This document shows, piece by piece, positions 13,033 to 46,738 of a stretch of 64,000 nucleotides of DNA. Position 1 is the first letter of the stretch. Each line of letters opens with the position of its first letter. The notes beneath the pieces are model-generated. The model had not been told where the DNA came from and did not search any database. It saw only the letters and a program-made list of their open reading frames with translations. Source of the stretch: a virus (taxonomy: Duplodnaviria > Caudoviricetes); IMG/VR virus record IMGVR_UViG_3300028591_000082; one strand, 5' to 3'. Position numbers and translations under genes: made by a program.

Positions 13033-13105
13033 CATTCCTTGCAGGAATTGAACCTTGCGTTTGTTGCTTGAGAGGCAACTGTCCTTACCATTAGACGAAA
13101 GGAAC
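13033..13105 (-). tRNA. tRNA-Glu(CTC), bulged T-stem
   Basis: GTTGC-CTCTCAA-GCAAC. Confidence 0.8.
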
Positions 13106-13112
13106 ATAAGAA

Positions 13113-13206
13113 TTACCAACTTAAGGACTTGAACCCTAATCCCGCGCCCCTTTTTCCCGCGACCCCACACGGATTTGCTGTCCTTTAGTGAGATCGTTTA
13201 TCGGTA
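13113..13206 (-). ncRNA. tRNA-like RNA (acceptor and T arm only recognisable)
   Basis: TACCGAT/GTTGGTA; TTAGGG-TTCAAGT-CCTTAA. Confidence 0.4.
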
Positions 13207-13384
13207 CTAGGGGGCACTGTGCCCTGTACACCACTTGATAATGAGCTTCCAAAATTAGCCAGCTTCGCTACAGAAACTCCAGTTGTTTCGTTTGCAACCG
13301 AAAAACAACCTTTTTACATACTTTTTATTCGTAAGTATCAAAACGAGTTAGTTTCCGATTTACTTAAACTAACAAATAAGGTGA

Positions 13385-13457
13385 CGGTCTGTGCGAGAGT
13401 TGAACTCGCCATCTCCGCAGTGACAGTGCGGCGTGATAACCGATACACTAACAGACC
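13385..13457 (-). tRNA. tRNA-Asp(GTC)
   Basis: CCGCA-CTGTCAC-TGCGG. Confidence 0.92.
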
Positions 13458-13475
13458 ATAAAATCATTTCTTTTA

Positions 13476-13547
13476 TATCCCAACTAGGATTCGAACCTAG
13501 ATCTCCACTCTTAACGAGCAGAATGCTAACCGTTACACCATTGGAAC
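13476..13547 (-). tRNA. atypical tRNA, nominal anticodon TTA
   Basis: full cloverleaf; loop CGTTAAG (G33, possible C32-G38 pair). Confidence 0.55.
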
Positions 13548-13806
13548 AACCTAAACTAGTAAGAGGGTTAACGCGTATTTCTCTTAGTCGGCTTGAGCAG
13601 GGAAAAGAAAATATGCTCGTGCCTACTAGTTTGGTAGTTAATTAGTCACGCAGACGGCATTTGCCGACACTTCTGGTTTGCCAACTACCTATGCTCACGG
13701 ACTCTAACCGTTTCTTAGTGCATTGAAGTTACAAGTAAGTTTTCCTTACTCTTATATTATACACCGTAAATCTGAATTTAACAGGGTGCATAATTTTTTG
13801 GTTTCG

Positions 13807-13880
13807 TGGAGCGGGGGAGCATCGAACTCCCAACCTCATGATTGCAAATCACGTATTCTAGCCAATTGAACTACCGTCCC
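13807..13880 (-). tRNA. tRNA-Ala(TGC)
   Basis: G3-U70; loop TTTGCAA. Confidence 0.9.
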
Positions 13881-14036
13881 AAATAAAGTGATCTTTTGGT
13901 ATCATACATACAGATACATTATAGCAGGTAATCACATTGAGTTTTTGCAATACAAACAAAAACAACCTTTAGTTCATGTAGTTAGACTTCTACCAACTAA
14001 TCTCGTTCTCCTAGTGTCTAATTCAAACGAGCGGCT

Positions 14037-14125
14037 CGGTTGGATGGAGAATCGAACTCCAGCTACGCTCATCACGCAGGACAATTTTCAAGATTGCTAC
14101 CCATGCCAACTAGGTGTTCCCAACC
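14037..14125 (-). tRNA. tRNA-Ser(TGA)
   Basis: GCAAT-CTTGAAA-ATTGT; long variable arm. Confidence 0.85.
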
Positions 14126-14211
14126 ATTATTCAAACAAAAGAACCTAGTAAAGCATCACGGTACCATTGCAACAATGCATAACGACTTATATACTGATCC
14201 CTTTGTTTTAA

Positions 14212-14293
14212 TGGGCAGTGGAGGACTCGAACCTCCAAGGCACAAAGGCGACAGGGTTACGGCCTGCTCAGCTACCATTACTGTCAACTACCC
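14212..14293 (-). tRNA. tRNA-Tyr(GTA)
   Basis: GCAGG-CCGTAAC-CCTGT (C33). Confidence 0.85.
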
Positions 14294-14602
14294 ATAATGT
14301 CCGATGCGGAGTAGCCGCTTTAAAGGCGCTCGTTGTACACGCACCTAGCTTGCAAGGTCTGGGTTGTTATTCAAAACAGATAGTAATTAGGATTTCTACT
14401 ATCACCTTTACTGGTAGGTACAAGCCGCTAAACTTGCAGTCCTCGCCTTGGCAGTTCTCGGGAAGAGGAGTGCCCCCTTAACCCGCATACTTTTAGTAAC
14501 TACTGCTTAAATTTTCTCTTTAGTTTTTTAACCTTGACATAAGCCAAGGTAGGCTAGACTATCCCTACTCGCTTAGCCTAGCTGGGTCAGAACACACCCG
14601 TT

Positions 14603-14848
14603 TTAGTCAAAATAATACCAATCACCTCTCGGTGAAGGTAAACCTTTTAAGAGATATCTTTCAATCTCTTCGTCTGTACAATCTATAGAAATTTTATTTA
14701 ATTCAGATTTCTGTAGATTTCTTCTCTGCTTACGCTGTTCTGCATGAAAACCTACTACTGATCTTCTGTAGTAACGGTAAGTATATCTCTTTCTTCTTGT
14801 ACAACCACGAGTTCCGTGATCTTGCTTATTAGGTTTATTTTTATACAT
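14603..14848 (-). CDS. small Arg-rich basic protein
   Basis: ORF track; AAGGAG nearby. Confidence 0.6.
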   Translation of the reverse strand: MYKNKPNKQDHGTRGCTRRKRYTYRYYRRSVVGFHAEQRKQRRNLQKSELNKISIDCTDEEIERYLLKGLPSPRGDWYYFD

Positions 14849-14880
14849 AACCTAAGTCATAAGCAACTCCTTTAATTTAG

Positions 14881-14954
14881 TCGGCGTGAGAAGATTTGAA
14901 CTTCCACTTTACAGATTCTAAGTCTGCTCCCTCTACCAGTTGGGGTACACACCG
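14881..14954 (-). tRNA. tRNA-Leu(TAG), short variable loop
   Basis: GCAGA-CTTAGAA-TCTGT. Confidence 0.85.
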
Positions 14955-15042
14955 ATAATCACATTCGTTAGGTAGAATGTGGTAGACCACGCCATGCTTA
15001 CGAATGGCAATTATCCTTAGATACTTCCGTCTAAGTCGGATT

Positions 15043-15126
15043 TGCCAAGAGAGGGACTCGAACCCACAAACTCTTACGAGCACAGCCACCTCAAGGCTGC
15101 GTGTTTACCAATTTCACCATCTAGGC
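15043..15126 (-). tRNA. tRNA-Leu(GAG)
   Basis: CAGCC-TTGAGGT-GGCTG. Confidence 0.9.
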
Positions 15127-15194
15127 ATATAAAAGGGTAAAGCGTGTTAGGCTTCCCCTTAATGATTAAGCTCTTGGCAAAACCATCTCTCTTG

Positions 15195-15278
15195 TCGGCC
15201 TGGAGAGACTCGAACTCTCAATCCTTACGGCGTCCGATCTTAAGTCGGATGTGCATACCAAAATTCCACCACAGACCG
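15195..15278 (-). tRNA. tRNA-Leu(TAA)
   Basis: TCCGA-CTTAAGA-TCGGA. Confidence 0.9.
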
Positions 15279-15335
15279 AAAAATAATGAACGACTTCTAA
15301 TACTGGAAGGAAGTCTAGCAGACGCACAGGACAAT

Positions 15336-15392
15336 AAAAAAGGCTTCTGAGTTTTAACATCAGAAGCCTTAGAATTCGAAATTAAGACTTCT
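15336..15392 (-). terminator. attenuator 2: terminator plus antiterminator
   Basis: terminator AAGGCTTCTGA/TCAGAAGCCTT-TTTT; AGAAGTCTTA, starting at the leader stop, can pair instead with TAAGGCTTCT. Confidence 0.8.
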
Positions 15393-15487
15393 CATGTTAG
15401 ATATGGTTCGTCTGCATCATTATATAATGATGTTGCGAGAGAATTAAGAGAAATAATAGAACTGTAAGTAATAATATTCTTTTCCAT
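15392..15487 (-). CDS. leader peptide 2, MEKNIITYSSIISLNSLATSLYNDADEPYLT
   Basis: TAAGGT RBS; lies between a consensus promoter and the attenuator; codons match downstream tRNAs. Confidence 0.8.
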   Translation of the reverse strand: MEKNIITYSSIISLNSLATSLYNDADEPYLT

Positions 15488-15529
15488 ATCTATACCTTAT
15501 ATTTATATTTATCTTTACGCTATAGAAAA

Positions 15530-15558
15530 ATTATAACATTAAAAAATAAAAATGTCAA
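15530..15558 (-). promoter_or_regulatory. consensus sigma70 promoter
   Basis: TTGACA-17 nt-TATAAT with TG extension; the same class occurs at ~21482-21510, 24633-24661, 63757-63785, 63873-63901. Confidence 0.85.
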
Positions 15559-16062
15559 CTATTTTCTATATTTCATTTTGAACCAAGTCCTAATGATTTT
15601 ATTCTCGTTTTTTCTAAAGAAAGCGTAGAAATCTTTTTCAGAAAGACCCAATGGCAAATGTAATCTTCTTACTACCATAGAAAGCAGATCCCAATCGCTT
15701 AGATTCCACTTTCTTCTTGTTTTATTATATAATTTGTAATCTTCATAAAACTCTTCGTTCCACACTTCTTTTTCGAAATCTTTTCTTATTGAAGAAAGAT
15801 TTTCACTAAAGTAAGAACCACCATCTGAAGCCCAACTATAATTATCATTCCAATTAACATTTCTGTCAACTTTTCTGTTTACAAATTTATCGTCAGGGTT
15901 TCTATTAGTTTCATAAATATTACAATCACGATATTCTGCAATACATTCTTTAAGAATTTTATTATCGTGAATTCTTCTATTCTTATTATAAATAGTTCTA
16001 TCTTTTTTATCGCTAGAACCAGTTATATTAAGTCCACCATTTTTCTTATAACTTCTGCTCAT
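15559..16062 (-). CDS. hypothetical basic protein (MSRSYKK...)
   Basis: AGGAG RBS. Confidence 0.7.
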   Translation of the reverse strand: MSRSYKKNGGLNITGSSDKKDRTIYNKNRRIHDNKILKECIAEYRDCNIYETNRNPDDKFVNRKVDRNVNWNDNYSWASDGGSYFSENLSSIRKDFEKEVWNEEFYEDYKLYNKTRRKWNLSDWDLLSMVVRRLHLPLGLSEKDFYAFFRKNENKIIRTWFKMKYRK

Positions 16063-16216
16063 AGTTTTCTCCTATGTTAGAAATTATTCTTTTTTGTTTT
16101 TTCCAAAGAAAAAAGCAATGTTTAAACTTATTAAAATAGCAGCACCTACTACAAAAAGAAACAAAGTCATATTTTCCTCCTTATTTTTTTGTTGTGATAC
16201 TTTTTTAATAATATAT

Positions 16217-16290
16217 TGGCGCTGACAGGGCTCGAACCTGCATAAATCTGATTAGAAGTCAGAGTGGCATCCAGTTGCCTACACAGCGTC
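16217..16290 (-). tRNA. tRNA-Arg(TCT)
   Basis: TCTGA-CTTCTAA-TCAGA. Confidence 0.88.
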
Positions 16291-16502
16291 AAAAAAGCCA
16301 AACCTCCTACTTGCCGCCCCCTCGTGTTTATACTCACGAATTATTCAAGGACTTATCGCAGATCCTATAAAGTGCGCACGGATCCGCGGGGTTAATCAGG
16401 TCTGTTCCTCAAAAGTGCCGAGCACTCTCTTGAATGCGACCCTGTTCTACACTTGGCTTACATTTATAAGGAATTGTTCTAGAATTTTCCATATAAACAT
16501 AG

Positions 16503-16573
16503 AGGTTCAGGTGGGAGTCGAACCCACATTTCCGACATACTCGTCAGCGTTCTTACCATTAAACTACTCAACC
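16503..16573 (-). tRNA. tRNA of undetermined identity (6-nt anticodon loop GAGTAT)
   Basis: good D and T arms; defective anticodon loop. Confidence 0.5.
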
Positions 16574-16678
16574 ATAAGAAGGGCTCATTTTAATCACCAC
16601 AGTGTCATTGCCCTTCGCCCATATATTTATACTGCGTTGTGGCTCTTTGCAGTTTATAAGTAGACTTGCTACTCATAG

Positions 16679-16752
16679 TCCTCCCAGATGGAATTGCACC
16701 ACCGACCAACGGCTTATAAGGCCGCTGCTACTAACTGCTGAGCTATGGGAGG
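16679..16752 (-). tRNA. tRNA-Ile(TAT)
   Basis: GCGGC-CTTATAA-GCCGT; T loop TGCAATT. Confidence 0.8.
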
Positions 16753-16845
16753 AAAAAATTAACTTCCTTATATATATATTATACACCCTAAAACTAAGTT
16801 TAACAGGGTGCATAAATTTTTGGTTTCAAAAACAAATAATAAGGT

Positions 16846-17154
16846 TTACTTATTATCAGAATTTTCTGTAACATCTTGGTAGTTCATTTCGATTTGAGTA
16901 TTAACTTCTGTAGTTCTAGTATAGTTAATATTCTTCATTGCTACAGCAAAATTTACATCATAGCATTTCTGACAATTATAAGCCGCAACCATACTTCCAA
17001 CAGAAGCAAGTAAACAAACTCCAAGACCAGCCAATACTCCTTTCCATTTTAAACTTTCATCAACCGCTTTAATTCCAATATAAATTAAAACTACAACTAA
17101 TGGTATGATAAAAAATACCGACACAACTACCCAAAGACATGCCGCTCCAGTCAT
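16846..17154 (-). CDS. two-TM membrane protein (start revised to MTGAAC)
   Basis: two hydrophobic segments; AAGGAG RBS. Confidence 0.65.
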   Translation of the reverse strand: MTGAACLWVVVSVFFIIPLVVVLIYIGIKAVDESLKWKGVLAGLGVCLLASVGSMVAAYNCQKCYDVNFAVAMKNINYTRTTEVNTQIEMNYQDVTENSDNK

Positions 17155-17253
17155 AAAATCTCCTTCAAGTGATGAATAAAATATTCTCAAAAAAAATATT
17201 TTATTCATCACTTGATGATATAATTATATCACCAAGTGATTTTTTTGTAAATA

Positions 17254-18342
17254 CTACTGAGAAGTAGCTTCCTTAATCAGACTATCAAGCCCAAGAACTT
17301 TCAAGTCGTTAGAAGTAATAACCTTTGGAAGATTGATGCTTTCCAAAGCCCTTGCTCGAATCTTAATAGCTTCAGCCTCGGCTTCACCTTTAAGTTTCAA
17401 GTTTGCGATTTCCTGCTCTTTCTGTTTACGAGCCAACTCTATGTTGGAAGTCTGAGCCAAAATCTGCTGCTCTGATACAGTAGTTCTCGCCTGTGCTTCA
17501 CGATTTTTTCGTTCTGCTTCAATTCGCTCAGTTTCAAGTTTCTGTAGTTCTATCTCATTACGCTTTTTCTGAACTTCTGCATCCTGCCTCTTTTTCTCCG
17601 TTTCTACCTGTGCAGCAAGTTTAGCCTGCTCGTCCATCTGATTTTGTAGAGTAGCATCGTCTGGTATCATACCATTCCAAACAGCAAGGTTATCAATAGT
17701 TATACCAAATTCTTCAGCCCAAACTTTAATATTTTCTATAGCGGCTGCTACAATTTCATCACGATTAGGTAGCACATCTTTGTATTCGTATTTATGAAAT
17801 TCTTTAGATAATTCTGCGGCTACAACATTCTTAAACTGGTTATTCGCTACATTTTCGGGCGAACTTATCATTTTAGATTTAGTACCCTTTACTTCTATAT
17901 CTGCAGGGAATTTAGACAAAAACCTTCCAGAATCTGCAGGCGTTACACGAATAGCATATTTCATAGGAACAGTAAATCCCTGACTACCTTTTGTTTCAAC
18001 TTTTATATCATCTTCCCAAGTACCAGTAATAGGGGAATTAGAAACTGCAACAACCTTTAATTTAGAAATATATTTACCAGTACCACGCATTCGCCCCGTC
18101 TTTACCCACTTATGAGGAATCTGAACGAGCTTTTCGTTTAAAAGATGGCTCTTGTAATAATCTTCTGAAGTCAAAGTTGCCTGAGCACTTTGATCATTTT
18201 CAGCAAAAAGGTCAATTACGAATGCGGTTTCATTCGTATCAATCTGAACATACTCTGGTTTGTCATATGGTTTAATGAACAAACAAGAGCTAAACAAAAA
18301 TGTTGCAGTAAACAACATCAACACCAAAAATAATTTTTTCAT
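17254..18342 (-). CDS. SPFH/band-7-like lipoprotein
   Basis: signal peptide with lipobox (FSSC); FGITIDNL SPFH-like core; C-terminal coiled coil with GEAEAEA. Confidence 0.7.
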   Translation of the reverse strand: MKKLFLVLMLFTATFLFSSCLFIKPYDKPEYVQIDTNETAFVIDLFAENDQSAQATLTSEDYYKSHLLNEKLVQIPHKWVKTGRMRGTGKYISKLKVVAVSNSPITGTWEDDIKVETKGSQGFTVPMKYAIRVTPADSGRFLSKFPADIEVKGTKSKMISSPENVANNQFKNVVAAELSKEFHKYEYKDVLPNRDEIVAAAIENIKVWAEEFGITIDNLAVWNGMIPDDATLQNQMDEQAKLAAQVETEKKRQDAEVQKKRNEIELQKLETERIEAERKNREAQARTTVSEQQILAQTSNIELARKQKEQEIANLKLKGEAEAEAIKIRARALESINLPKVITSNDLKVLGLDSLIKEATSQ

Positions 18343-18348
18343 TAGGTT

Positions 18349-18657
18349 TTATTCTCCTTCCCTAAAAATTTTAATAATTTTTAATACATTTTTAACAAAA
18401 ATGTATACAACTGCTATCCAAAGCAATAAAGCCAAGAAAGCAAACAAAGAAGTAAGACTATCTTGATTGTTAATAACAAACTCAGAAAGATAGAGAGGTA
18501 CTTCTTTATTTAATCGTTGGATTTCAAGTTCTCCTGCTGCTTGATTTATTATAGTCGCAAAAAGACCACGAGCAAGATATGTAAACTTTATCGCTAAGAA
18601 TAAAAAAGCTTCTTTGATAACTAAGCCAATAGACCTAGTTGCAATTTCTTTAACCAT
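18349..18657 (-). CDS. two-TM membrane protein (start revised to MVKEIA)
   Basis: GGAG RBS; extension in the ORF track overlaps tmRNA. Confidence 0.65.
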   Translation of the reverse strand: MVKEIATRSIGLVIKEAFLFLAIKFTYLARGLFATIINQAAGELEIQRLNKEVPLYLSEFVINNQDSLTSLFAFLALLLWIAVVYIFVKNVLKIIKIFREGE

Positions 18658-18681
18658 TTTATTCTCCGTATATTTAATGTA

Positions 18682-19051
18682 TGGAGGTGCCGAGATTCGA
18701 ACTCGGGTCTTCACCAATTACTATATTAAACACTTCTATACAGGCTTAAAGTCATATTATTGCTTGGAATGACTAATACCATAAAATCTTTAACCTTATC
18801 ATTTAGCCAAAGGATTTGCAGACTTTGATCGCTAAACTATTCCGTTCGTTTACACGCCTTCTAACATCTATAACAGAAAGGAACTGTAAGAAGACGGCTA
18901 GGCTCACGCAGTCCTAGCAAGTTTGAGGTGCTTACGCAGCCATCAAAACTTCTTCGTAGTCGTTGTCGATTACTTTTTTGCCATTTCAAACCATGACTGG
19001 TTATGTACCTGATGTTCAATTTTTCATTGTGAATCGATACCGTTCACCCCC
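18682..19051 (-). ncRNA. ssrA: tmRNA; tag (A)GKKVIDNDYEEVLMAA
   Basis: 5' GGGGGTGAACGGTATCGA; 3' GAAGACCCGAGTTCGAATCTCGGCACCTCCA (G3-U70); internal tag frame ending LMAA-TAA. Confidence 0.93.
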
Positions 19052-19213
19052 GAAAAATTATTCTTTGCTTGTAGCAATATTTATTGCTTCTTGTAATGTT
19101 TTTGTGTATCTATATACACCTTTATAGTGAATGCAAGCGAGATATTTGCCAGGTGTTTTCCATACTTCCCAACAACCATATCTTGCAATAAATTTCCAAT
19201 ACATATTTGCCCT

Positions 19214-19402
19214 CTATTCTTCGTCAAAAATTCTTCTACTACAAGAAAATAAATCTTCTCTTTCTATATCTTTAACAGAAGATAATAAGAATATATATGC
19301 AGATACTTTATCTGTTATTATTCCTTTTTTTCTAAAGTTTTTCCCTTTCTTTACGAGTCTGTTAAATTTTATTTTTTTGAAAAAATCTTTAATAAAATTC
19401 AT
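19214..19402 (-). CDS. hypothetical protein
   Basis: GAGGA RBS. Confidence 0.55.
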   Translation of the reverse strand: MNFIKDFFKKIKFNRLVKKGKNFRKKGIITDKVSAYIFLLSSVKDIEREDLFSCSRRIFDEE

Positions 19403-19406
19403 AATA

Positions 19407-19595: not shown

Positions 19596-19677
19596 ACAAA
19601 TCCCTTATACTAATATTATATCACGAAAATATTATTTAAACAGGGTGCAAATTTTTTACTTTTGAAAATAATTTGTG

Positions 19678-20068: not shown

Positions 20069-21160
20069 TTATTCATTCGCCTTGCCTTTCTTTGAATCCT
20101 TCTCAAACGCCTTGAGTAAGAGAATTGAAGTGAGCGCATTCTGATCTTTGCCGCCCATACCCTGAAGAGCAAGCAAAGGAAGGAGGTCGTCTTTGTCTCC
20201 TTTTCCGTCGAGCAACATGAGTGGCAGCAATCCATTTAAACCTCCTTCGCCAAACTTTCCACCATTAGCCATGCTGAGCATAGCCATTGTCTTTACGTCA
20301 AATTCACCATCGCCAAGTAACATTGCTGCTGCCATTGGGTTGTTGTTGATGCCCATTGAACCGAGCATCTGTGCCTGGATAAGACCCTTTGTATCGATCT
20401 TACCATCTGTTCCGAAGAGCGGCTTGTAAACAATTACCTTGTCTGTCATTGGAATTGAAGAAACAAGAATCTGTGCAACAATACCAGTATCAAGATTGAT
20501 TACTTCGTTGTCGGCTCTTGCGAAGAAGAGTGATTCACCATCAGAGTAGTAAACACCCTTCGTGATCTTGTCAGCAACTGTTGGAACAAGTGCTGGAATA
20601 TCCTTCAAAAGTACAAACTGTGGCAGAATTTCTGCAGCAGCACCTGCTTCATTGATGTACTTGTACTTTCCATTTACTGCGAAAGCAAGCTTCTTGTCAA
20701 ATGTGATAACACCTTTGATCATGTTAAAATTCATTGTGGACTCCTTCTTGATTGATTTCTTTTCGATTGTTGGTGCACGTCTTGGTGCAGCCTTTACTGG
20801 TTCTTGGTCAGCAAAAATTGGGTCGCCATATTCTGGGGCTTCTGTGTCAAGGCTAGAAATATCTCTTTTAAGAGAACCTACATCATAACGAATTTCCTTG
20901 TAAGAATCGATTGTGTAGATATCTACTTCATCGCCATTGCTGTTGTATGTTCTACCAACAGCCTTGAACTTTGGGTTAACTGCCGAGAAGTAAAGCTCAA
21001 CATCACGAGCTGTGTTAAGTCTTACACCCCATTTTGAATCACCAACAAGCTGTACCTTAAAGTAACCTGAATATGCTTTGATATGTGCACGAGTTACATT
21101 GTTAATGCACTCTGCAGCATCAGGTACCTTAAACTTCTGTTTTTGTGGTTCGTAAGTCAT
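20069..21160 (-). CDS. hypothetical protein with Met/Leu/Gly-rich C-terminal repeats (start revised to MTYEPQ)
   Basis: AAGGAGGT RBS; extension in the ORF track overlaps tRNA-Glu. Confidence 0.8.
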   Translation of the reverse strand: MTYEPQKQKFKVPDAAECINNVTRAHIKAYSGYFKVQLVGDSKWGVRLNTARDVELYFSAVNPKFKAVGRTYNSNGDEVDIYTIDSYKEIRYDVGSLKRDISSLDTEAPEYGDPIFADQEPVKAAPRRAPTIEKKSIKKESTMNFNMIKGVITFDKKLAFAVNGKYKYINEAGAAAEILPQFVLLKDIPALVPTVADKITKGVYYSDGESLFFARADNEVINLDTGIVAQILVSSIPMTDKVIVYKPLFGTDGKIDTKGLIQAQMLGSMGINNNPMAAAMLLGDGEFDVKTMAMLSMANGGKFGEGGLNGLLPLMLLDGKGDKDDLLPLLALQGMGGKDQNALTSILLLKAFEKDSKKGKANE

Positions 21161-21195: not shown

Positions 21196-21270
21196 CATTC
21201 CCTGCAGGAGTTGAACCGTACATCTTAGTCCTGAGAAGACTTTGTCCTATATCCGTTAGACGAAGGGAAC
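21196..21270 (-). tRNA. tRNA-Glu(CTC), bulged T-stem
   Basis: loop TTCTCAG. Confidence 0.75.
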
Positions 21271-21372: not shown

Positions 21373-21445
21373 CATTCCTTGCAGGATTTGAACCGTGCTT
21401 TTATTGCCTGAGAAGCAATCGTCCTAGCCATTAGACGAAAGGAAC
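21373..21445 (-). tRNA. tRNA-Glu(CTC), bulged T-stem
   Basis: ATTGC-TTCTCAG-GCAAT; identical to the copies at 22022 and 22346. Confidence 0.8.
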
Positions 21446-21561
21446 ATAAAAATTTTTTTGATTTTTTGTTGTTATACTTAAATTATAACATGAAATATGA
21501 TTTTTGTCAAGTTCGTTACCAAACTTTATGTGAAATATTTTTTGATTTTTTTCATAATTTC

Positions 21562-21634: not shown

Positions 21635-22021
21635 ATAAAACTGATAGTTTATCGGTCACTATCAAACGAGTAATGTTTTTTTAACGGTACAAAACACCAC
21701 CAAGAAGACAATTACTGCCATACCAGCCAGCAGTAAACATATACTGTATTGCTGGTACATACAGCAACGACGGCTTTACTATTATAAAGGCTGAAGCTAA
21801 GCCTACCTATCATTTATGTCGTAGTAGGTGACGAAGATATTTAATCTAGAATATCCCAAGAAGGTATTTTGACCTGAAATACCCAAAACAGGACTTGCTG
21901 TCGTTAGTCCACGGATTTTTAAAGGGTTAACTCCCGACCTCTTTTTTAAGTGGTTGTTCCCACTTCTTTTCTAAATCTTTTTTGAGAGCAGAACCCTCTA
22001 AAAGATATTTTATAAAAAAGA

Positions 22022-22094
22022 CATTCCTTGCAGGATTTGAACCGTGCTTTTATTGCCTGAGAAGCAATCGTCCTAGCCATTAGACGAAAGGAAC
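22022..22094 (-). tRNA. tRNA-Glu(CTC), bulged T-stem
   Basis: identical copy. Confidence 0.8.
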
Positions 22095-22345: not shown

Positions 22346-22418
22346 CATTCCTTGCAGGATTTGAACCGTGCTTTTATTGCCTGAGAAGCAATCGTCCTAG
22401 CCATTAGACGAAAGGAAC
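22346..22418 (-). tRNA. tRNA-Glu(CTC), bulged T-stem
   Basis: identical copy. Confidence 0.8.
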
Positions 22419-22975
22419 ATAAAATCGCAAGTACTGTACACATACTCGCTTGTGGGCAATCCCATTGTATAGTCGGTCTACCACCATTATGTCTACTGTA
22501 AATCTCAAATCAGTTACCGATACAAATTTTCATGTTATCAAATTTGTTAAAGTTAGCCCAAACCGTACTTGGACAGTCAGCAAGCCATTCCTCTAATAAA
22601 GCACTTAATAGCTTCGTTAAGCCTGACATTTAGTGAGTGTCTTAGGACACCATTGTCAATGGCATCCTTGCTGTCTTTTTTTGTTTTCTCTAATTTCATA
22701 ATTTGCAGGATATTCTATATAATGTTACCAACGAACTTTCTTCATAATGAAACTCCTTTAGTGTATTTTAAAAAGACAGTTTCGAGTCAAAAGCAAATGA
22801 AAATAATAGAATTGCCCAAACTCTAACTGTCTTTTATTTTTCTTTTTTCAATCGCTTTCGCTAAGGATGCCTTACTGTGAGATTGTCCCTTAGGTACTTA
22901 CTTGCTGAACTAGGTTTTAATACCCTGTACTACCTAACAGCCATAAAACCGTTTCCAATTAAATGTACAAATTCA

Positions 22976-29185: not shown

Positions 29186-29509
29186 CTATATCTTAACAAA
29201 CCTTGTAGTTTTATTATAAAGAATTTCTTTTAATGCATAAAACATTATCTCTCTCATTTCTTCACAATTACTAAGCTTTGCATTACGATAACCAAGTTCT
29301 TTTAAAAAATGATTGCATCCTGTTGATTCTATCCCAAACTTATCATTAAGTGGGCATAAATCACAATCATGTGGAAATAAGTTATTGCGTAAATTATTAT
29401 AATAAGTTTTTATTAAAGACTTACCAATATCATTTGTATGAATAAAATCTTTAACACCGACAACTAAATGTCCAAAGTATATTTTATCTACGCGTTTTGG
29501 AAGCTTCAT
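29186..29509 (-). CDS. CxxC family protein, tail RFVKI
   Basis: CDLCP..C..C. Confidence 0.75.
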   Translation of the reverse strand: MKLPKRVDKIYFGHLVVGVKDFIHTNDIGKSLIKTYYNNLRNNLFPHDCDLCPLNDKFGIESTGCNHFLKELGYRNAKLSNCEEMREIMFYALKEILYNKTTRFVKI

Positions 29510-30746
29510 TTATAAATTTTAGTCCTTTTTCTGCATACTCGCAGTTTTTTATTTTCCAAGAATCTCCAATATTTTTGTCTTTATCATAATTAATGGTACG
29601 AACAACAACACCTTCGTGCTGGAAATAGTCTTTCCAAAGCTTTTCACCCTTCTTTGGCTTATAAAAATAATCTACTTTTCCATCACCAATAGGCTTCCAG
29701 TATTGTCCTTCTGCAAATGTAACTGCTGTATCAAGATCTGGCATTACATCTTTAAGAATAAACTTTCCAATAACAGGAACAGTTTCAAGATCAAGTTCTT
29801 TACAAACAGAAAGCATTTCTTCAAAACCAAATTGCATTCCAGTAATTGCATCTTTTATTGTATAAACAAAGAGATGAAGATCCTTAAAGCCATAAATATT
29901 TTCTTGTATTCCAGGCCCACATTGCTCACCTTGAATTACGAGTAATTTTCCAGTCTTTTTATAATAATCAAGAATTTTTTTCTTGAGATCATATTTTTCT
30001 GCAATAGCCCAATAATCATTTGAAACTTTTGCACGATAAGCAATATTTCTTGAACAAGTAAAAAAGCAAGTAGGTTTCTTACCTTTTTTATCAAAAAGAT
30101 AAGTTCCACTTTGACCTTCCATTTTACAAGTTACATATATTTCATTGTCTGCAAACTTTTCAGTTACATATTTTTTATTCTGAATAGTTGTTTCGTCAGA
30201 TTTTGAAATTATATAAGATGGAAATCCACCAGACTTTGCAGATTTCTTATTGTTAAGAATAATCTTGCCAATCCAACGAGTATATTTATACTTCATAAGA
30301 AAATGTACTAATCCAGTTTGTTTCTTTGGAGATGCTTCTTCCTGCTCTTCGTATTTTTCAATTTTGAGAAGTTCTGTAATGTCGTCACCAGCCTTGAGTT
30401 TGTTTATAGTTTTTTCGTTAAGACCAATTTGATCAAGTCGAAGAACAAGACCCCAAGAACGAATTTCCTTAAATTTCTTTACCTTAATAAGATATTTATT
30501 AAGATCTGGCTTATAACATTTAAGATTCATAAGAAATGCCCAAGTGCCAACTGCATTTCCATCTTTATCAATTTCTGCTGGAAGTAATGCACCTTCTTGA
30601 ATAAAAGCAACAAGATCACCAGGTTGAATATCTTTACCTACCATAGCTTCATAGCCATTTTCAACCATAGAAATTCCATGAACACGATCTTTTCCTTCAA
30701 GTGCCCAAGCTTTATCTACTGTACAAACAGATGCCAAATCTCTCAT
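29484..30746 (-). CDS. RNA ligase (Rnl2/DRB0094-like)
   Basis: N-terminal OB-like domain; nucleotidyltransferase motifs KMEG, QGE, F, EGVV, KIK. Confidence 0.85.
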   Translation of the reverse strand: MRDLASVCTVDKAWALEGKDRVHGISMVENGYEAMVGKDIQPGDLVAFIQEGALLPAEIDKDGNAVGTWAFLMNLKCYKPDLNKYLIKVKKFKEIRSWGLVLRLDQIGLNEKTINKLKAGDDITELLKIEKYEEQEEASPKKQTGLVHFLMKYKYTRWIGKIILNNKKSAKSGGFPSYIISKSDETTIQNKKYVTEKFADNEIYVTCKMEGQSGTYLFDKKGKKPTCFFTCSRNIAYRAKVSNDYWAIAEKYDLKKKILDYYKKTGKLLVIQGEQCGPGIQENIYGFKDLHLFVYTIKDAITGMQFGFEEMLSVCKELDLETVPVIGKFILKDVMPDLDTAVTFAEGQYWKPIGDGKVDYFYKPKKGEKLWKDYFQHEGVVVRTINYDKDKNIGDSWKIKNCEYAEKGLKFINEASKTRR

Positions 30747-30813
30747 TTTATTATCCCCCAATATACATATATATTATACAACTAAAAAATTATTTTAGCA
30801 GGGTGCAAACTTT

Positions 30814-39549: not shown

Positions 39550-39594
39550 ATATAATTATATCACGAAAAATATATTTCAGCAGGGTGCAAATAA

Positions 39595-42374
39595 TTATAT
39601 TTTAATTTCTCTATTTGTTGTGATCATTGTTAAAATTTTTTTTGCTGAATCTAAGTTTCTACCACAAGTATCATTGTTTAAATAAAAATTGGTACGTAAT
39701 GATATAACATAATTAGTTAATGTTTGACAATTAGTATAATAATTTCCAGTTTTCTCTGTTCTTAATGGACATTGATCGCATGTACGACCACAAACATTAA
39801 TATACATATCTATAAATTCTATCATTTTTTTTGGACTAATCTTATATCTTTTTGAATAAAAATTTCTTATTCTAAGTGCTTCAATATTTTTGAATCTTTT
39901 CATATTTTTATATTCCTACTCTTAAGTCCAATGTTATATACCCAATTTTGAAAATTATCACAATCAACGCTGCCACGAATATATTTACACTGATATAGAT
40001 CCAAGTCAAAATAATGCATTATATCTATTGCTATATCAGAACAAGAATCAAAAATATCTACTTCTAATCTTATATTATTTATAAGATTATTTTCTGTGGC
40101 AATACCATATCTTCCTCTTAGTATACATACTGGGCATCCTTTGCAACTTTCATTTATTGTTTCTTTTTGCTCTTGTGGAGTTTTTATTCGAAACATATAT
40201 TTTTTTAACTCTTTAAATTCTTTAATATGTTTCATATATTTATACTCCTACTTTTATTTAAAATATATTTTATTGCTTTTATATGGCTTCTACATCCATC
40301 TCTTCCTTCGTTAATTTTTCTCCAAATATCAAAACCACCTACTGTTTCTATATATCTTCCACAAGTAAGATGTAAACGATTATTTCTATCTGCACAAGCA
40401 CACATAATACATCCAGGATAACCTTTATTTCTAGAATGTTTGACGTACTCAACGGCTTTTTTAAAAGCAATTTTATCAATATTTTTCATATTTTTATATG
40501 CCTACCAAAATTGTTTACTATTTTGCAAATTATTGCTCTTCCTTCAGCACAACTTGTAAATTTTTTATCACCACCCATTGCTTTGTATATATCTGCACAA
40601 GAACCATGCATAGCATATTTCTCTCTTGGGAAGTCTGTTTTAAGTCTTTGCCATACACATTCTGCACAAGCAGTAACCTTTTCGTTTACTGTAACATTTT
40701 TATCGTATTTTATTATCCATTTGATATCTTTTAACAATTCTTTGTTTAAAGGCATTTGCTAATCCTTCTTAATTATTTTTTTATCATATTTTTATATCAC
40801 GTTTTGAATTATTGTCTAAAGCAAATTTTATTGCTACTATATGCTCGTCGCAACTAAGTTCATCTTCTTCAAAGCCAAGTCTTTCCCAAATATCTTCTCC
40901 TAAAACTTTTTCTATGCGTTCATAACAATATAAATTATCAGAATTATTTTGATGAGAGCTTGGGCAATTTTCACATTCGTCACAATCACTACTTTCATAA
41001 TCCAAAAATGTTATATAATGTAAAGTATCTTTAAATATTATTTCAGTTTGCTTATTTAGTTTTATTTTTTTCATATTTTGGCTGGTTTCCTATAATTTTC
41101 CAAAGTATATTTTATTGCTTTTAATCTATCACTACAGTTGTGCTCGTCTTCTCCTATTCCTATTTTTCTAAGAGATTCTCCAATTACTTCTTCAATAAAA
41201 ACACAACAGCCAAGATGAAGTGGATTATACTCAAAACTACAAGGACATTCAGTACAATTCCTTTCACCATATTTATGATATTCTAATGTTTTCTTAAAAA
41301 GTTCTATATAAGTTGAATTTAGTCTCATATTTTTGCTGGCTTCCTATGATTATAATCTTTTAAAGCTTTTTTAACTGATTCTAATCTTCTTTTGCATGAA
41401 TAAAAACCGAAACGATCTATATATTGTGGAATCACTCTAGTAAGAAAATCCATGCATCCTTCCCCACTTGGATTATTTGAATAACTAAGTGAACATATAC
41501 TACAGTCATGGCCTTGGTTTTCTTTTAATGCATTTTTTAAAGTTCTTATTTCTTCTTTGCTTAGTTTCATATTTTAGTTGCTCTTATTTTACTTTTTGTT
41601 TTATATATTATATCAGAAAAGCGTCTGACATCATCACAATTAAATAAATTAAACATTCGTTTTCCAGGAACAAATTTTGCAAACACTTCATTAAAATAAT
41701 CAATACAACCAATACCAATATCATTATTAGAAGAACTCATTGGGCATTCTTCACAAGCTGTAAAATCATTTATATATTTCATTTCAGAAAGTATTTTCAT
41801 TAATTTTCTGCTTGGTCTCATACTTTAATGTTCCTATATGATTTTTTTAATAATATATCTGTATAATTCCTAATTGTTAGACAATAACTTTCGTATTTTT
41901 TACTATTGTTAATAATCCATTGTTCAGAATTACTGCAAATTTCATGTAGATAAGTAAGACAAGAAATATTAAATCCACTATTAGTGGCATACAAAGGACA
42001 ATTGTCACAACCAATGTGCGTTCTTTTACAATCAAGAGAAAATCCTTTTGACAATATATTTTTTCTTAATGCATTTAATTTACTAATATCAATCATATTT
42101 TAATAATCCTAAAATTGGTAGGTAGCTGCTCCAAAAACCAACAATAAAACCTACTGCAATTAACGGAATTATCTATAATTGCTCTTGGCGGGTAATCCAT
42201 TTTTAATATGTCAAGCATTCTGTAAACTTCCATAGCACAACTTCCATTGCATATTTTTTTCCCAGTAATTTTTTTATAGATTTCCTTTGGACAAATATGA
42301 CATTCGTTGGCAATATCATTAGAGCGTGATATCATTGTTTCTTTTATTTTAAGAGCCAAGGTTGAATTTTTCAT
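39595..42374 (-). CDS. array of ten CxxC family genes (left ends 39595, 39900, 40232, 40486, 40784, 41071, 41325, 41567, 41818, 42093)
   Basis: 81-111 aa each; CxxC..C..C; R..[K/N][I/V] tails; mostly ATGA-coupled. Confidence 0.85.
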
Positions 42375-42670
42375 GCTGGTATTTCCATTTCCTGATATTC
42401 CTTTCCAGCTTTCCAAGATTGATAGGTAGATACTTTCATTACACCTGAAGTATTATCAGTTAAAAAGCCTTCGCTGTTGTATTCACGATTATTGTCTTTG
42501 TGATATTCTTCATTAATACCGTCAAAGCCATCAAAGAAAGCGGCATTGATGTATGTCATATCTATTTCATCAAAGTTTTGAAACTCTTCGGAGTGTTCAC
42601 CATTATAATAATAGTCGTACCAGGCATCTCCCTTGTTATTATAAGCCTTCTTCATATCAGGAAACAACAT
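42371..42670 (-). CDS. acidic hypothetical protein
   Basis: GGAGGT RBS. Confidence 0.7.
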   Translation of the reverse strand: MLFPDMKKAYNNKGDAWYDYYYNGEHSEEFQNFDEIDMTYINAAFFDGFDGINEEYHKDNNREYNSEGFLTDNTSGVMKVSTYQSWKAGKEYQEMEIPA

Positions 42671-42674
42671 AAGA

Positions 42675-42935
42675 CTACACCTCCTCTACTTCTAAGCAGT
42701 CTTCTTCAGCAAGCTTGTTAAATTCTTCTTCTGAGATTTCTTCAAGAATATAAGAGATGTGAAGTTCTTCTTCGTCTTCTTGTTCGTCGTCCCAATCAGC
42801 TTCTTCCATAGAGCGATCGTCTGCATGTTCGCAGCAGAAGTCGTCTACTGCGTTATAGTCCTTGTCAGACTTAATGAGATATTCGTTAGTATATCCACAG
42901 TAATTTGCATCTTCTTCTACTTTATAAAACTTCAT
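42675..42935 (-). CDS. small highly acidic protein (duplicate of 2199-2456)
   Basis: GGAGG RBS; box promoter at 42990. Confidence 0.8.
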   Translation of the reverse strand: MKFYKVEEDANYCGYTNEYLIKSDKDYNAVDDFCCEHADDRSMEEADWDDEQEDEEELHISYILEEISEEEFNKLAEEDCLEVEEV

Positions 42936-43021
42936 AATTTGCCTCCAGTTATTCCTCATATATATTATACAACAAAAAAAGCACCTTAGCAGGGTGCAAA
43001 AGTTTTAGGAATAATCAATAA

Positions 43022-44919
43022 CTATATCTTCACAGATTTTCTTTTTGACTTAAAATCCTCACATATTTGATAACAAGCATCTCTTACGTCACAGCAGCTA
43101 AACAAATGACCCGATGGTAAATATCCCTCAATTATTTCCTTACCAATCATATCTCGCAGGACAGTTAAGCAAGTTCTAAAATAAATTCTATCATTGAGTG
43201 GACACGTTTCACAATGCAAATCAGGAACTGTAGTTGTCATTTTTAACATTTTAATTATATCGGGTCTTATTTTTTTCATATTTTTGTATTTCTTGAGAAT
43301 TTGTAATTTTTAACAAAATCATATACTTTTTGGTGTATAGTTGGGCAATGAGTGGTCATATCAATACCAAATATTCTCTGTATTTCACTGCATGGCTTTT
43401 CCCCACCAAGACAACTAATCATTGTATCTTTTTTCTTTCCAATACTTTCAAAGTATTTATGCAGTATACAAGTTTCTCGCATCAAAACCCCATAACCAGT
43501 TCTTCCAATATCTTCATTACAATTCTTTTGTATGCATTTGAATTTAGCTATCACATCATCTTTTTTCATATTTTACATCCAAGCCTGTATTTAGAATGAT
43601 TAACCATATATTTAATTGCAATTACCTGATCTCTACAACCAGTACAGTCTCCCCCAGATTCTTCATATATTTTATCTCCTCCAATCTTCATTATAAATAA
43701 ATAGCATCCAACTTTTGCTCTATTATTTTTTTTAGACATAGGACATTTTTCACATATATGCCCTTCACTTTGATGCTCTTCTACATATTTTAAAGCACTT
43801 TTAAGCGTCATTAAATCTTTTTTACCAATCTTTTTCATATCTTAATACCTCTAGTAGAGTTAGAATATTTAATCATATATTCAATTGCCATATGCTGAGA
43901 ATTATACCCCTTCATTGCCGCTTCATCGCGTATATTCTTTCCTCCCAAGAACTTTATAAATTCTGGGCAAGTCAATCCCACTCTATTATTAGTACTGCTC
44001 ATAGGACAAGTTCTACAATCAGCAAACCCCTTTCCCTCCCAAAGTCTTTTAGCAGTTTTCATAGTAGCCAGATCACTTTTACTAATCCTTTTCATATTTT
44101 AATACCCCTTAAATGGCAAATTCTATATATTTCTTTATGTATATCAGCACACATAATATATCTATTAAGTCCAAACTCTTCTACTATTTTACCACATATT
44201 TTCCCACCAAGACATTGACTTCCGTGATATTCTTGTTGTAAAGCTTGTTCTAAGAATTTATGCAATATACAAGATTTTCGTATAATAAACCCATTATCAT
44301 CTATTTTAATATTAGGAGAGCATTTTATGCTTTTAAGTTTATTAAACATCTGCCTATAGTTAAGTATTTGTTGATACCCATTCATATCTTAGTCTCCCTA
44401 ATACCTCTTTTTATAATATTATATACATTCTTATGTATATCAGCACACATATTAGTTGCTTTTAATCCAAGCATTTTCTGTATGCCTTCACATATATATC
44501 CTCCAACACAATTAGCTCCATAAAACCTTAATGGTGGGTTTACACATAATAAGTACTTATGCAGTATACAGTTATGCCGCCAGTTAACGCCACAAGTATT
44601 AAGATTAGGATTACACTCTTTTCTTACTTTACAAAGTAAGCGTATCATTTCATTATTAGCCATATTTCCTTTATATCCTACAAAATCTATTAATTTTTAT
44701 ATTCATAAATGCATCATAAAACTCTATACAACCACATCCACCACTATACTTTATACCAAGCCTTTTACATAACTGTTCCCGGTGTTCTGCACACCCAATG
44801 CCCTTAAGTCTTCTTATAGATAAATTACTATAAATGGTAATAGGACAGCACCTACAAGCACCAGGAGCATTGTTCTTAGCTAATTCTGCTTGTATTTTCC
44901 TTATCATTCTCTTATCCAT
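43022..44919 (-). CDS. array of seven Cys-rich family genes (left ends 43022, 43276, 43566, 43835, 44092, 44382, 44671)
   Basis: CxxCP or CILH variants; tails KSVKI, RNTKI, LGCKI, RGIKI, RGIKI, RETKI, RFCRI. Confidence 0.85.
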
Positions 44920-45341
44920 ACCCTATACCCTCTACATATAAAAATTCAAAAGTAAATATTTATCCTTATAACTATATTATACCATAAATCGCCCATAAAA
45001 TCAATAAAAATGCTTATTTTGTCTCAGCCAGTGGTTTTTTGAAAGAAAAAGTCATTTTGAAGCGGTTTCAAGGTCAAAAACATCCAAAAAAGCTCAAAAA
45101 TACCCAAAAAGTGCCAATAAAACCCATAGTTTTGCCATAGTTATGTGTATATATAGGGGAGTAATAAAGGCACTTTGCCGATTATTATTGGAACTTTGAG
45201 GGAGTCCCCGCTCTCTCCTCCGTGTCAACAAAAAAACCTGCCCAGAGCAGCTGATTCAGGTGACAAAAATTATTCGCCAGATGCGTGGATTATGATGACA
45301 AAAAAATCTGCCCAGAGCAGCAGATTACCAAGACAAAAAAC

Positions 45342-45370
45342 TTGAACTGTTTATTGTTCCGTGCTATAAT
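45342..45370 (+). promoter_or_regulatory. sigma70-like promoter for the + strand pair
   Basis: TTGAAC-17-TATAAT with TG extension. Confidence 0.6.
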
Positions 45371-45376
45371 TGAGCT

Positions 45377-45730
45377 ATGCCTAGAATAAGTGATAGATAT
45401 AGAGTAATAGAAAGCGATTGGACTCCATATGTAACTGTAACACATAATGATACTACAGCTGATGCAACTACAGCTACTAGTACTGGTACATATTGGACAT
45501 TTAATGATGATGTTAATGATAATCGTGTAACAGTTAATTTACATGATTATTGGTATGAGGTACCTAATTCAAATGGATACATTACTTTGGATCCAAGTCT
45601 AAGCTTTAATAGTAATTCATTATGGTCTGATAATAGATCATATGTTAGTTGGGATCCAGGATTAAGTTTTGAAGAAGCTTACAAAAGATGGTTGAAAAGA
45701 CGGAATAAGAAGAGAGTTATAAGGATATAG
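45377..45730 (+). CDS. hypothetical protein, tail RVIRI (possibly leaderless)
   Basis: ATG 6 nt after the -10 box. Confidence 0.7.
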   Translation: MPRISDRYRVIESDWTPYVTVTHNDTTADATTATSTGTYWTFNDDVNDNRVTVNLHDYWYEVPNSNGYITLDPSLSFNSNSLWSDNRSYVSWDPGLSFEEAYKRWLKRRNKKRVIRI

Positions 45731-45732
45731 CA

Positions 45733-45912
45733 ATGGAAGAAGAACTTTTAGAATCGGTTAGACGATTACTAGATAGTGTTTATAGGGATAATATCAGCCG
45801 CAGAATATTTAGAGAATACTCTATGGAAGTGTCGGGAGATACTATTTATTATGTTAGACCATTCTTTGGAAAGAATATAAAACACAAGTGCAGGAAGAAT
45901 TGCAAGATATAA
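45733..45912 (+). CDS. 59 aa protein, tail RKNCKI (not in the ORF track)
   Basis: translated by hand, MEEELLESVRR...HKCRKNCKI; AAGGA RBS. Confidence 0.65.
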   Translation: MEEELLESVRRLLDSVYRDNISRRIFREYSMEVSGDTIYYVRPFFGKNIKHKCRKNCKI

Positions 45913-46048
45913 TCGAATATTTGCGCCAATTAGGCTTTGCGGCCACTGTGGCTTTTTTATTGACAGTGTAATGATAGGAACCCCGTTTCGGGGCAAAAAT
46001 AAAAGCCCCTCGGGCGAACCCAAGAGGCTTCTAGCAATTTTTTTATGA

Positions 46049-46432
46049 TTAAGCAGCAGGCTGAATGCTTACAACCTTACCGAAGTTGATGTAGCGTACA
46101 CCAGTTGTTCCGTTAGGAGTGTTGTCTTCGGTGTAGTTTACAGTGATTGTAGCCTCGCCAATCTTTACGATTGGGAACTGATACTCTTTAGCAAACTTGC
46201 CAGAGCCGCAGATTACAGTAGCGATGTCGCCAACCTTTGCGTCCTTAACAAGAGCCTTACCAGCTTCAATTGCTTCAGCCTTAGCGGCTTCGCGAGCTGC
46301 CTTTGCCTGTTCAGCAAAAGCTTCCTTACCAGCCTTCTTCATTTCCTTGAGGGCGTCGATAGCAGCGTTGATTGAATCGAGGTTGTCAGCCTGAATACCG
46401 ATAGTAGCGAATGTTTCTGGAGTGAATTCCAT
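46049..46432 (-). CDS. coiled-coil plus KOW/SH3-like protein, paralog 2
   Basis: VGDIATVICGSGKFAKEY...RYINFGKVV. Confidence 0.85.
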   Translation of the reverse strand: MEFTPETFATIGIQADNLDSINAAIDALKEMKKAGKEAFAEQAKAAREAAKAEAIEAGKALVKDAKVGDIATVICGSGKFAKEYQFPIVKIGEATITVNYTEDNTPNGTTGVRYINFGKVVSIQPAA

Positions 46433-46665
46433 AATTTTGTCCTACCTAAGTAAACTTAGGATTTTGATTAAATTTGTTGTTCTTACGAACTTTTTTGAGG
46501 AGCAACGCTCCCTTACTCTTATATTATACACCGCAAATCCTAACAGAACAGGGTGCATATTTTTTTGGTCTTGCGACCGTTTGCAGCTTCGAAACCTCTC
46601 TGAGAAGGGGGCAGAACCCAGCCCACAAATTGGGCTTCAATCTCATAAAAGATTTCTGACTGCGA

Positions 46666-46738
46666 CATTCCTTGCAGGAGTTGCACCGTGCATTTCTTGC
46701 CTGAGAAGCAATCGTCCTAGCTGTTAGACGAAAGGAAC
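46666..46738 (-). tRNA. tRNA-Glu(CTC), isolated copy
   Basis: same body as the 21-22 kb copies; T loop TGCAACT. Confidence 0.7.

Follow-up and report, generated by a model that had tools for sequence, protein, structure and literature searches.

Seven tRNA-Glu(CTC) genes with a bulged T-stem in a phage of the ruminant gut: likely GAG decoders multiplied at the borders of small cassettes

The virus record IMGVR_UViG_3300028591_000082 of IMG/VR (Duplodnaviria; Caudoviricetes) provides a stretch of 64,000 nucleotides (nt), called the window below, in which seven genes for a glutamate transfer RNA (tRNA) with anticodon CTC carry one extra, unpaired base in the T-stem. Judging from comparison with related sequences, this bulge is a real, selected feature. 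The explanation that we favor, with a rough probability of 0.55, is that the seven genes are working GAG decoders that have been multiplied as boundary or processing modules of small cassettes. An earlier reading of the same DNA, made from its letters and open reading frames (ORFs) and referred to here as the sequence-only reading, had proposed that these tRNAs are not ordinary decoders but decoys for a tRNA-targeting defense, glutamyl donors, or punctuation marks cut by RNase P and RNase Z.

The seven genes were found where the sequence-only reading had located them, and all of them lie on the minus strand, which that reading had left unstated. They are given here together with the tRNA-Glu(TTC) gene of the window, which served as an internal control:

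13033..13105, minus strand: tRNA-Glu(CTC) in the main tRNA block, adjoining tRNA-Glu(TTC); T-stem GCA[A]GG/CCTGC
21196..21270, minus strand: tRNA-Glu(CTC) of 75 nt rather than 73, from two additional D-loop bases; anticodon stem AAGTC/GACTA; T-stem GTA[C]GG/CCTGC
21373..21445, minus strand: tRNA-Glu(CTC), the "master" sequence, which is the same as the copies at 22022 and 22346 and those on the related contigs L122 and L124
21562..21634, minus strand: tRNA-Glu(CTC); T-stem GTA[C]GG/CCTGC
22022..22094, minus strand: tRNA-Glu(CTC), sequence equal to the 21373 copy
22346..22418, minus strand: tRNA-Glu(CTC), sequence equal to the 21373 copy; hairpin and U-tract directly 5' of it
46666..46738, minus strand: tRNA-Glu(CTC) subtype with D-loop AACAG (A18) and T-loop TGCAACT (G55), in a transcription unit of its own
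12890..12962, minus strand: tRNA-Glu(TTC) with a canonical T-stem of five base pairs (bp), GGAGG/CCTCT

The copies at 21373, 22022 and 22346 match one another at 73/73 positions, and the other features described earlier were likewise reproduced: all seven T-stems have six bases against five (GCACGG, GCAAGG or GTACGG against CCTGC), G1.U72 is present in 7/7 copies, and the anticodon loop is TTCTCAG in six of them and CTCTCAA in the copy at 13033. A signature combining the T-arm and the acceptor gave seven matches, against 0.00 expected from 100 shuffles. All seven genes scored 36-58 bits with the Rfam tRNA model RF00005, for which the gathering score is 29, and four of the seven were called by ARAGORN. 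In the minimum free energy folds, the T-arm took the form (((.((.......))))) in 7/7 copies, that is, three pairs, one unpaired base and two pairs. The one-base bulge follows T-stem pair 51:63 in every copy, and the uninterrupted 5-bp T-stem of the canonical 7/5 form is absent from all of them. The paralogs of the window differ by compensatory changes in the anticodon stem (ATTGC/GCAAT versus AAGTC/GACTA). In Escherichia coli, U11-A24, U13.G22, A46 and a variable loop of 4 nt are among the identity elements of glutamyl-tRNA synthetase (GluRS), and the E. coli identity set is complete in these tRNAs (U11-A24, U13.G22..A46, no nucleotide 47, U35, C36, U2-A71 and C4-G69). Position 1:72 is G.U instead of G-C, as it also is in Treponema tRNA-Glu(UUC).

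To follow the bulge in relatives, we scanned metagenome contigs with the conserved 5' half of the tRNA, leaving the anticodon and T-arm free, and obtained 66 loci. Every tRNA with anticodon TTC in these loci (27/27) had the canonical 21-nt segment of variable loop plus T-arm; extra bases were found in 56 of the 57 tRNAs with anticodon CTC, one base in 48 and two in 8. A covariation alignment was then built from 32 distinct sequences of 73 nt, which aligned without gaps and came from ruminant-gut phage contigs. Under the bulged model, 97.5% of the T-stem cells and 97.2% of those of the whole cloverleaf were paired, pair 50:63 was U-A in 19 sequences, A-U in 10 and G-C in 3, and 5/5 pairs of the anticodon stem covaried. 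The anticodon CTC and A46 were invariant among the 32 members, which also kept U11-A24, U13.G22 and the 4-nt variable loop, the invariance of the acceptor and D-arm in this alignment being partly forced by the search pattern. In addition, a relative at L065:8252-8326 has a different acceptor stem and yet retains G1.U72, CTC and the bulge. No bulge was needed in any of the 115 other tRNAs of these phage loci, and the tRNA-Glu(TTC) genes of the phages are canonical. On L122, a contig of 224 kb, and on L124, the tRNA-Glu(CTC) of the array is the same at 73/73 positions as the three-copy sequence of the window, while the neighboring protein is only ~50% identical.

Several other ways of drawing or explaining the structure were rejected. 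When the extra base was placed in a 5-nt variable loop, only 62.5% of the T-stem cells were paired, and the closing pair was formed in 0/32 sequences. An 8/4 architecture did not fit either: the acceptor has 7 bp and the T-stem 5, and U8 is unable to pair with C65. A pseudogene status for the family was discarded on the ground that compensatory changes preserve every stem.

Is the bulge a trait of the host? A search of a genome collection with the tRNA signature had a sole match, a 6-kb contig binned into a metagenome-assembled genome (MAG) of Treponema. This contig looks like a phage fragment, and Treponema is the presumed host of the phage. We searched 101 genomes of the Treponema genus that contains this MAG. 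Nearly all of them carry a tRNA-Glu(TTC), in which the first pair is G1.U72, the variable loop has 4 nt and the T-stem is a perfect 5 bp; G1.U72 is therefore ordinary for the presumed host. A tRNA-Glu(CTC) belonging to the bacterium itself was seen in only about one-quarter of these genomes; it has G1-C72 and again a perfect T-stem, and the bulged phage-type tRNA was met on the 6-kb contig only. Because the T-stems of Treponema tRNA-Glu are perfect, the bulge is not a trait of the presumed host, and inheritance from that host was rejected. The sequence-only reading had held that a bulge shared with host tRNA-Glu would tell against it; no host tRNA-Glu of that kind was found in the 101 genomes of the presumed host genus.

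The claim that a tRNA with a bulged T-stem is not an ordinary decoder did not survive comparison with other bacteria. We performed a scan independent of the acceptor, which required a Glu-type D-arm, a CTC anticodon and one extra base before GGTTCAA. Most of the matches were ordinary tRNAs with 5-nt variable loops, and six MAGs named "uncultured Campylobacter" carried the loop TTCTCAG and the arm GCG[T]GG/CCCGC. At one locus (L207), the bulged tRNA-Glu(CTC) adjoins serS, the cobalt transporter gene CbiM and an ABC transporter gene, a context indicating that the Campylobacter-like gene is chromosomal. In this Campylobacter-like genus, 62 of 78 genomes have a single tRNA-Glu(CTC) each, and its loop is TTCTCAG in all of them. 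The bulge is present in 59 of these 62 genes, and the other three, from three sister species, have stems of canonical length. On a 2.28-Mb contig (G108), the tRNA-Glu(CTC) is followed by an encoded CCA. A second lineage was represented by the cultured Lachnospiraceae bacterium A4 (L283, G104:C23:463728-463878), whose tRNA-Glu(UUC) is bulged (GC[A]GGG/CCCGT) and whose tRNA-Glu(CUC) likewise has a 6/5 T-arm (GT[C]GGG/CCCGC). Single-copy housekeeping tRNAs of this design almost certainly must work with EF-Tu and the ribosome, and bacterial tRNA-Glu may carry T-stem bulges more often than has been recognized. With bacterial housekeeping tRNA-Glu built on the bulged design, the structural case for a non-translational role falls away, and the bulge as a diagnostic of a non-decoder was rejected on the Campylobacter-like and Lachnospiraceae tRNAs.

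What remains odd is the amplification of the gene, not the shape of the bulge. As the sequence-only reading had noted, GAG is a minor codon: the ORFs of the window have 150 GAG and 897 GAA, so that GAG makes up 14% of the Glu codons. Its share is 13-28% in every sampled relative and 26% in the Treponema loci. In an alignment of orthologs, GAG stood opposite Glu codons at 55 of 108 positions (GAA 37, GAG 18), as GAA does; on this evidence a reassignment of GAG was rejected, whichever tRNA reads the codon. The 10-kb syntenic contig L098 has eight copies of the gene, and a regular-expression search found 74 instances of the bulged tRNA-Glu(CTC) in 33 related loci. ARAGORN, run on a set of 35 loci that was slightly larger, called 37 tRNA-Glu(CTC) and no more than five tRNAs for each of the other anticodons, except for nine tRNA-Glu(TTC).

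The copies stand among small units with promoters and genes of their own, of which the following were recognized near the array and near the copy at 46666:

21482..21510, minus strand: consensus sigma70-type promoter TTGACA-17-TATAAT with 12/12 matches, directly upstream of the 21373 copy
46969..47003, minus strand: phage-type promoter-like box TGCACCCTG ... TGATATAAT, read from the sequence, ~230 nt upstream of the 46666 copy
22577..22699, minus strand: mini-ORF of 40 codons inside the array, with no Pfam or PHROG match
20069..21160, minus strand: gene for a conserved protein of 363 amino acids, immediately downstream of the array
21774..22021, minus strand: spacer RNA of ~250 nt, just 3' of the 22022 copy

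The unit of the 46666 copy comprises its own promoter, a leader of ~220 nt, a hairpin and U-tract abutting G1, and a trailer of ~100 nt. The same box is met again after another ~420 nt, where it belongs to the next unit. The full repeat can be written GACCAAAAAA..TGCACCCTG..N~24..TG-TATAAT-ATAAGAGTAAGG; it is seen at 46969-47003 and at ~46520-46560 on the minus strand, and it heads successive units of ~420 nt in the island at 46-56 kb. Across the related loci, many of the 74 tRNA genes are flanked by upstream promoters, by a shared 3' motif YTYAGARAT, or by a ribosome-binding site and the start of an ORF 5-35 nt downstream. The spacer modules follow a different order in the window than in L098, whose array also contains the flanks of the 46666 unit. 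The DNA of the mini-ORF at 22577-22699 is 98% identical to L098:7172-7292 and 80% identical to L067, in surroundings of 70-85% identity; a "98% conserved spacer element" acting as RNA was considered and rejected in favor of the 40-codon ORF that its sequence spells. In the spacers of 19-27 kb, a permissive Rfam scan returned tRNAs alone.

The copy at 21196 lies 35 nt upstream of the 363-amino-acid gene, and a tRNA-Glu(CTC) is found just upstream of a gene for a protein of ~360 amino acids in the window and in all of the relatives fetched (L098, L122 and L124). In L122 and L124, a promoter stands between the tRNA and this gene; therefore, the two are not co-transcribed there. The 363-amino-acid protein had no match in Pfam or PHROGs, and its single-sequence AlphaFold model was unusable, with a predicted local distance difference test (pLDDT) score of 34. 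It has 189 metagenomic homologs, including many near-identical variants, on contigs of up to 224 kb.

Four sequencing runs from three studies were compared with the window as assembled contigs only. Such contigs break at the tRNA repeats and are unable to show the ends, strand or level of an RNA, and the parts that they do not cover carry no meaning. The RNA libraries of two studies, one of sheep and one of bovine origin, contain the array region. The contig spanning 21774-22049 had a depth 4-5 times that of its neighbors in the RNA runs and was flat in the DNA run, and in one RNA contig an Illumina adapter sits directly at 21774. The spacer at 21774-22021 has a fold z-score of -2.2 and is ~74% conserved in L098. 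An abundant RNA from this spacer is only hinted at by these data.

The window itself is AT-rich (GC 26-43%), and 91 of the 100 ORFs picked by a simple caller are on the minus strand. ARAGORN and Rfam together gave ~40 tRNA genes. Further features related to RNA in the window are:

18679-19051, minus strand: transfer-messenger RNA (tmRNA), with a tag ending in ..LMAA
13475-13548, minus strand: suppressor tRNA with anticodon TTA, reading UAA, inside the main tRNA block
3095..4489, minus strand: CCA-adding enzyme, with a PolyA_pol head and HD domains (Pfam/PHROGs)
29484-30761: RNA ligase, by domain match

Two metallophosphoesterases are also encoded. Essentially none of the phage tRNA genes counted has an encoded CCA, and because the tRNA genes of the window do not encode it, a CCA-adding enzyme is needed. 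The ORFs of the window appear intact under code 11, despite the suppressor tRNA. The tmRNA is also kept in the distant relatives (L122:11443-11831 and L124:11527-11914), just downstream of the gene for the 360-amino-acid protein. Upstream of the array, at 1-8100 of L122 and L124, there are genes for an NAD synthase, NAPRTase and a nicotinamide mononucleotide (NMN) transporter, which match an NAD+ gene set of gut jumbo phages (PMC11662467). A similarity search found no cultured phage resembling the window, and the signature of the bulged-tRNA family had 0 matches in IMG/VR. The public runs that share 31-mers with the window (16 studies) came from sheep, goat and bovine gut.

In the reading that we favor, each locus would be transcribed, some copies from a promoter of their own. 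RNase P would cut the 5' end, the 3' end would be trimmed, and CCA would be added, possibly by the enzyme of the phage. Host GluRS would then charge the tRNA with glutamate, and the charged tRNA would read GAG as Glu. The bulge after 51:63 would be a conserved structural variant that ordinary translation tolerates, given that housekeeping tRNA-Glu of bacteria has the same design. Charging, EF-Tu binding, decoding and processing of the bulged tRNAs are inferred here. A possible niche lies in the Treponema genomes, of which only about one-quarter showed their own tRNA-Glu(CTC). The copy number would most likely be a by-product, perhaps with a secondary use, of the duplication and shuffling of cassettes in a hyperplastic jumbo-phage region, where the tRNA gene would mark the borders of small transcription units and supply RNase P and 3'-end processing sites for neighboring small RNAs and mini-genes.

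A number of observations weigh against decoding as the role of these genes. Codon demand does not explain seven copies: on a count that covers the ORFs of the window, there are seven genes for a codon of ~14%, and a single gene for the GAA decoder. In the subtype at 46666, the universal G18-U55 elbow pair has become A18/G55. The loop CTCTCCG, found in the commonest subtype of the metagenomes, puts a pyrimidine (C) at position 37 and may allow C32 to pair with G38. At L121:4448-4521, beside at least six bulged copies, stands a tRNA-Glu(CTC) of canonical form, which lacks the bulge and has a host-like D-loop. Finally, no mature, CCA-ended or charged form appeared among the assembled contigs of the RNA libraries, which break at the repeats. 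Members with A18/G55 or CTCTCCG look poor as decoders.

With regard to the distribution of these two subtypes, A18/G55 is kept in L079, L098, L102, L122 (~9836-9908) and L124 (9836-9908), and in L098, L079 and L102 it is accompanied by a two-base T-stem bulge. The loop CTCTCCG, which would be very unusual for a decoder, occurs among L056-L121, for example, in L058, L067, L068, L088, L105 and L121.

The chief rival to decoding is that the genes act mainly in cis, as punctuation: the shape of the tRNA would recruit RNase P and 3' processing and thereby release or stabilize the RNAs in between, with decoding as a secondary matter. We consider this possible but rather doubtful. Many copies come with a promoter of their own and with a hairpin and U-tract that directly precede G1, and an ORF or structured RNA begins 5-35 nt beyond their 3' end; the copy upstream of the 360-amino-acid gene keeps its position across ~50% protein divergence; variants unfriendly to decoding (A18/G55 and C37) are tolerated; and the spacer at 21774-22021 is enriched in the RNA libraries of two studies, with a fragment end at 21774. 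However, contigs break at repeats whatever the processing, the promoter in L122 and L124 separates the tRNA from the gene, and the anticodon stems vary freely but CTC, A46 and the GluRS-type D-arm do not vary at all, a constancy that pure punctuation does not need. This part of the sequence-only reading thus keeps circumstantial support in the promoters, the ORF and RNA starts just past the tRNA and the enriched spacer, while decoding remains the reading that we favor. A role as glutamyl donor off the ribosome, where the bulge would weaken the EF-Tu ternary complex and so reserve Glu-tRNA for a tRNA-dependent enzyme, is unlikely. It would have parallels in the staphylococcal non-proteinogenic tRNA-Gly and in glutamylation of the LanB type. 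T-stem pairs 49-51:63-65 tune the affinity for EF-Tu, and the bulge abuts these pairs, so that it might act on EF-Tu binding; moreover, there are many genes for a rare codon, and the GluRS elements and the anticodon are conserved, with a relaxation of position 37 and of the 32/38 pair in one subtype. Nevertheless, a bacterial genus has this bulge and loop in its sole GAG-cognate tRNA gene, and no Glu-tRNA-dependent or other dedicated aminoacyl-tRNA-consuming enzyme was matched in Pfam or PHROGs among the 17 ORFs scanned, which are a part of those in the window. The donor proposal found no supporting evidence.

The same was true of the proposed decoys. As decoys for a host nuclease that targets tRNA in defense, or as resistant replacements against it, the copies would be in keeping with the RNA ligase, the two phosphoesterases and the CCA-adding enzyme of the window, which have the look of a tRNA-repair kit, and with the diversified anticodon stems of the paralogs. 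We nevertheless regard this as very unlikely. In most of the Treponema genomes sampled, no tRNA-Glu(CUC) was seen on which such a nuclease could act; the phage has one gene, of canonical form, for its main Glu decoder (UUC); and the bulge is not confined to phages. In addition, we know of no nuclease specific for tRNA-Glu(CUC). Neutral duplication or decay of most of the copies is highly improbable. The three copies that ARAGORN misses might be taken as a sign of it, as might a few degenerate relatives (U33 is missing from L070, and the acceptor stem of L112 is mismatched), but changes on both sides of the stems preserve pairing among the paralogs and among the contigs, three copies have the same sequence and match distant relatives, and several copies have their own promoters. 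A bolder version of the cassette idea, which we put forward tentatively, is that the bulged tRNA-Glu(CUC) might be a portable module of which tens of copies bound promoter-driven cassettes and provide an RNA-processing, perhaps also a recombination, site that releases small RNAs or leader-poor mini-mRNAs; the bulge and the variants of the elbow and anticodon loop would then have been tuned away from the ribosome, possibly via a lower affinity for EF-Tu.

Among known tRNAs, the closest likeness is the tRNA-Glu(CUC) of the Campylobacter-like genus (that of G102), which shares with the phage tRNA the Glu-type D-arm, the 4-nt variable loop, the UUCUCAG loop and the bulge after 51:63 (GCG[U]GG/CCCGC). 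It differs in being single-copy and chromosomal and in having G1-C72 and an encoded CCA. As sister species have 5-bp stems, the bulge arose within that genus, and it probably had an independent origin there rather than being the source of the phage bulge. The bulged design presumably decodes in these bacteria. The staphylococcal non-proteinogenic tRNA-Gly, like the phage tRNA, has several near-identical genes with altered T-stems; in staphylococci, however, base-pair substitutions weaken EF-Tu binding and the consumers are Fem transferases, whereas the phage tRNA has a bulge and no consumer was found in the 17 scanned ORFs. A bulge at 51a has been described in minor species of bacterial 8/4 tRNA-Sec and SelC* tRNA-Cys (Mukai et al. 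2017, PMC5389517). These also have a single bulged T-stem nucleotide in a natural tRNA, but they combine an 8-bp acceptor and a 4-bp T-stem with a Sec-like D-arm, whereas the phage tRNA has a 7-bp acceptor, five T-stem pairs and Glu identity. In the literature searched, we found no description of the bulge in tRNA-Glu or of its amplification in phages; the "bulges" of PMC12439589 are engineered substrates.

With respect to the arrangement of the genes, mitochondrial tRNA punctuation and the bacterial thrU-tufB operons also place tRNAs between genes, and there the cuts of RNase P and RNase Z set the ends of the neighboring RNAs. The tRNAs in those systems differ from one another and are each needed for decoding, whereas the phage repeats one species, a putative processing site. 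T4-type phages reportedly carry mobile regulatory cassettes known as PeSL. Their tRNA regions resemble the one described here in being hyperplastic, with small genes and stable RNAs interleaved with repeated modules and shuffled between relatives; the PeSL module, however, is a promoter and stem-loop, while that of the phage is a complete, selected tRNA-Glu(CUC) gene.

These results reveal a 7/5 tRNA whose T-stem departs, in nature and under selection, from the near-universal 5 bp. The departure was found in phages and in the housekeeping tRNA-Glu of two bacterial lineages, apparently with independent origins. It offers a natural test case for the tolerance of a 51a bulge by EF-Tu, RNase P, TruB/TrmA and the ribosome. 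As ARAGORN called four of the seven copies in the window, and 37 in related loci where 74 instances were found, tRNA counts of jumbo phages are underestimates. The amplification of a rare-codon decoder at cassette borders throughout a lineage also provides a lead on how huge phages organize and process their small transcripts.

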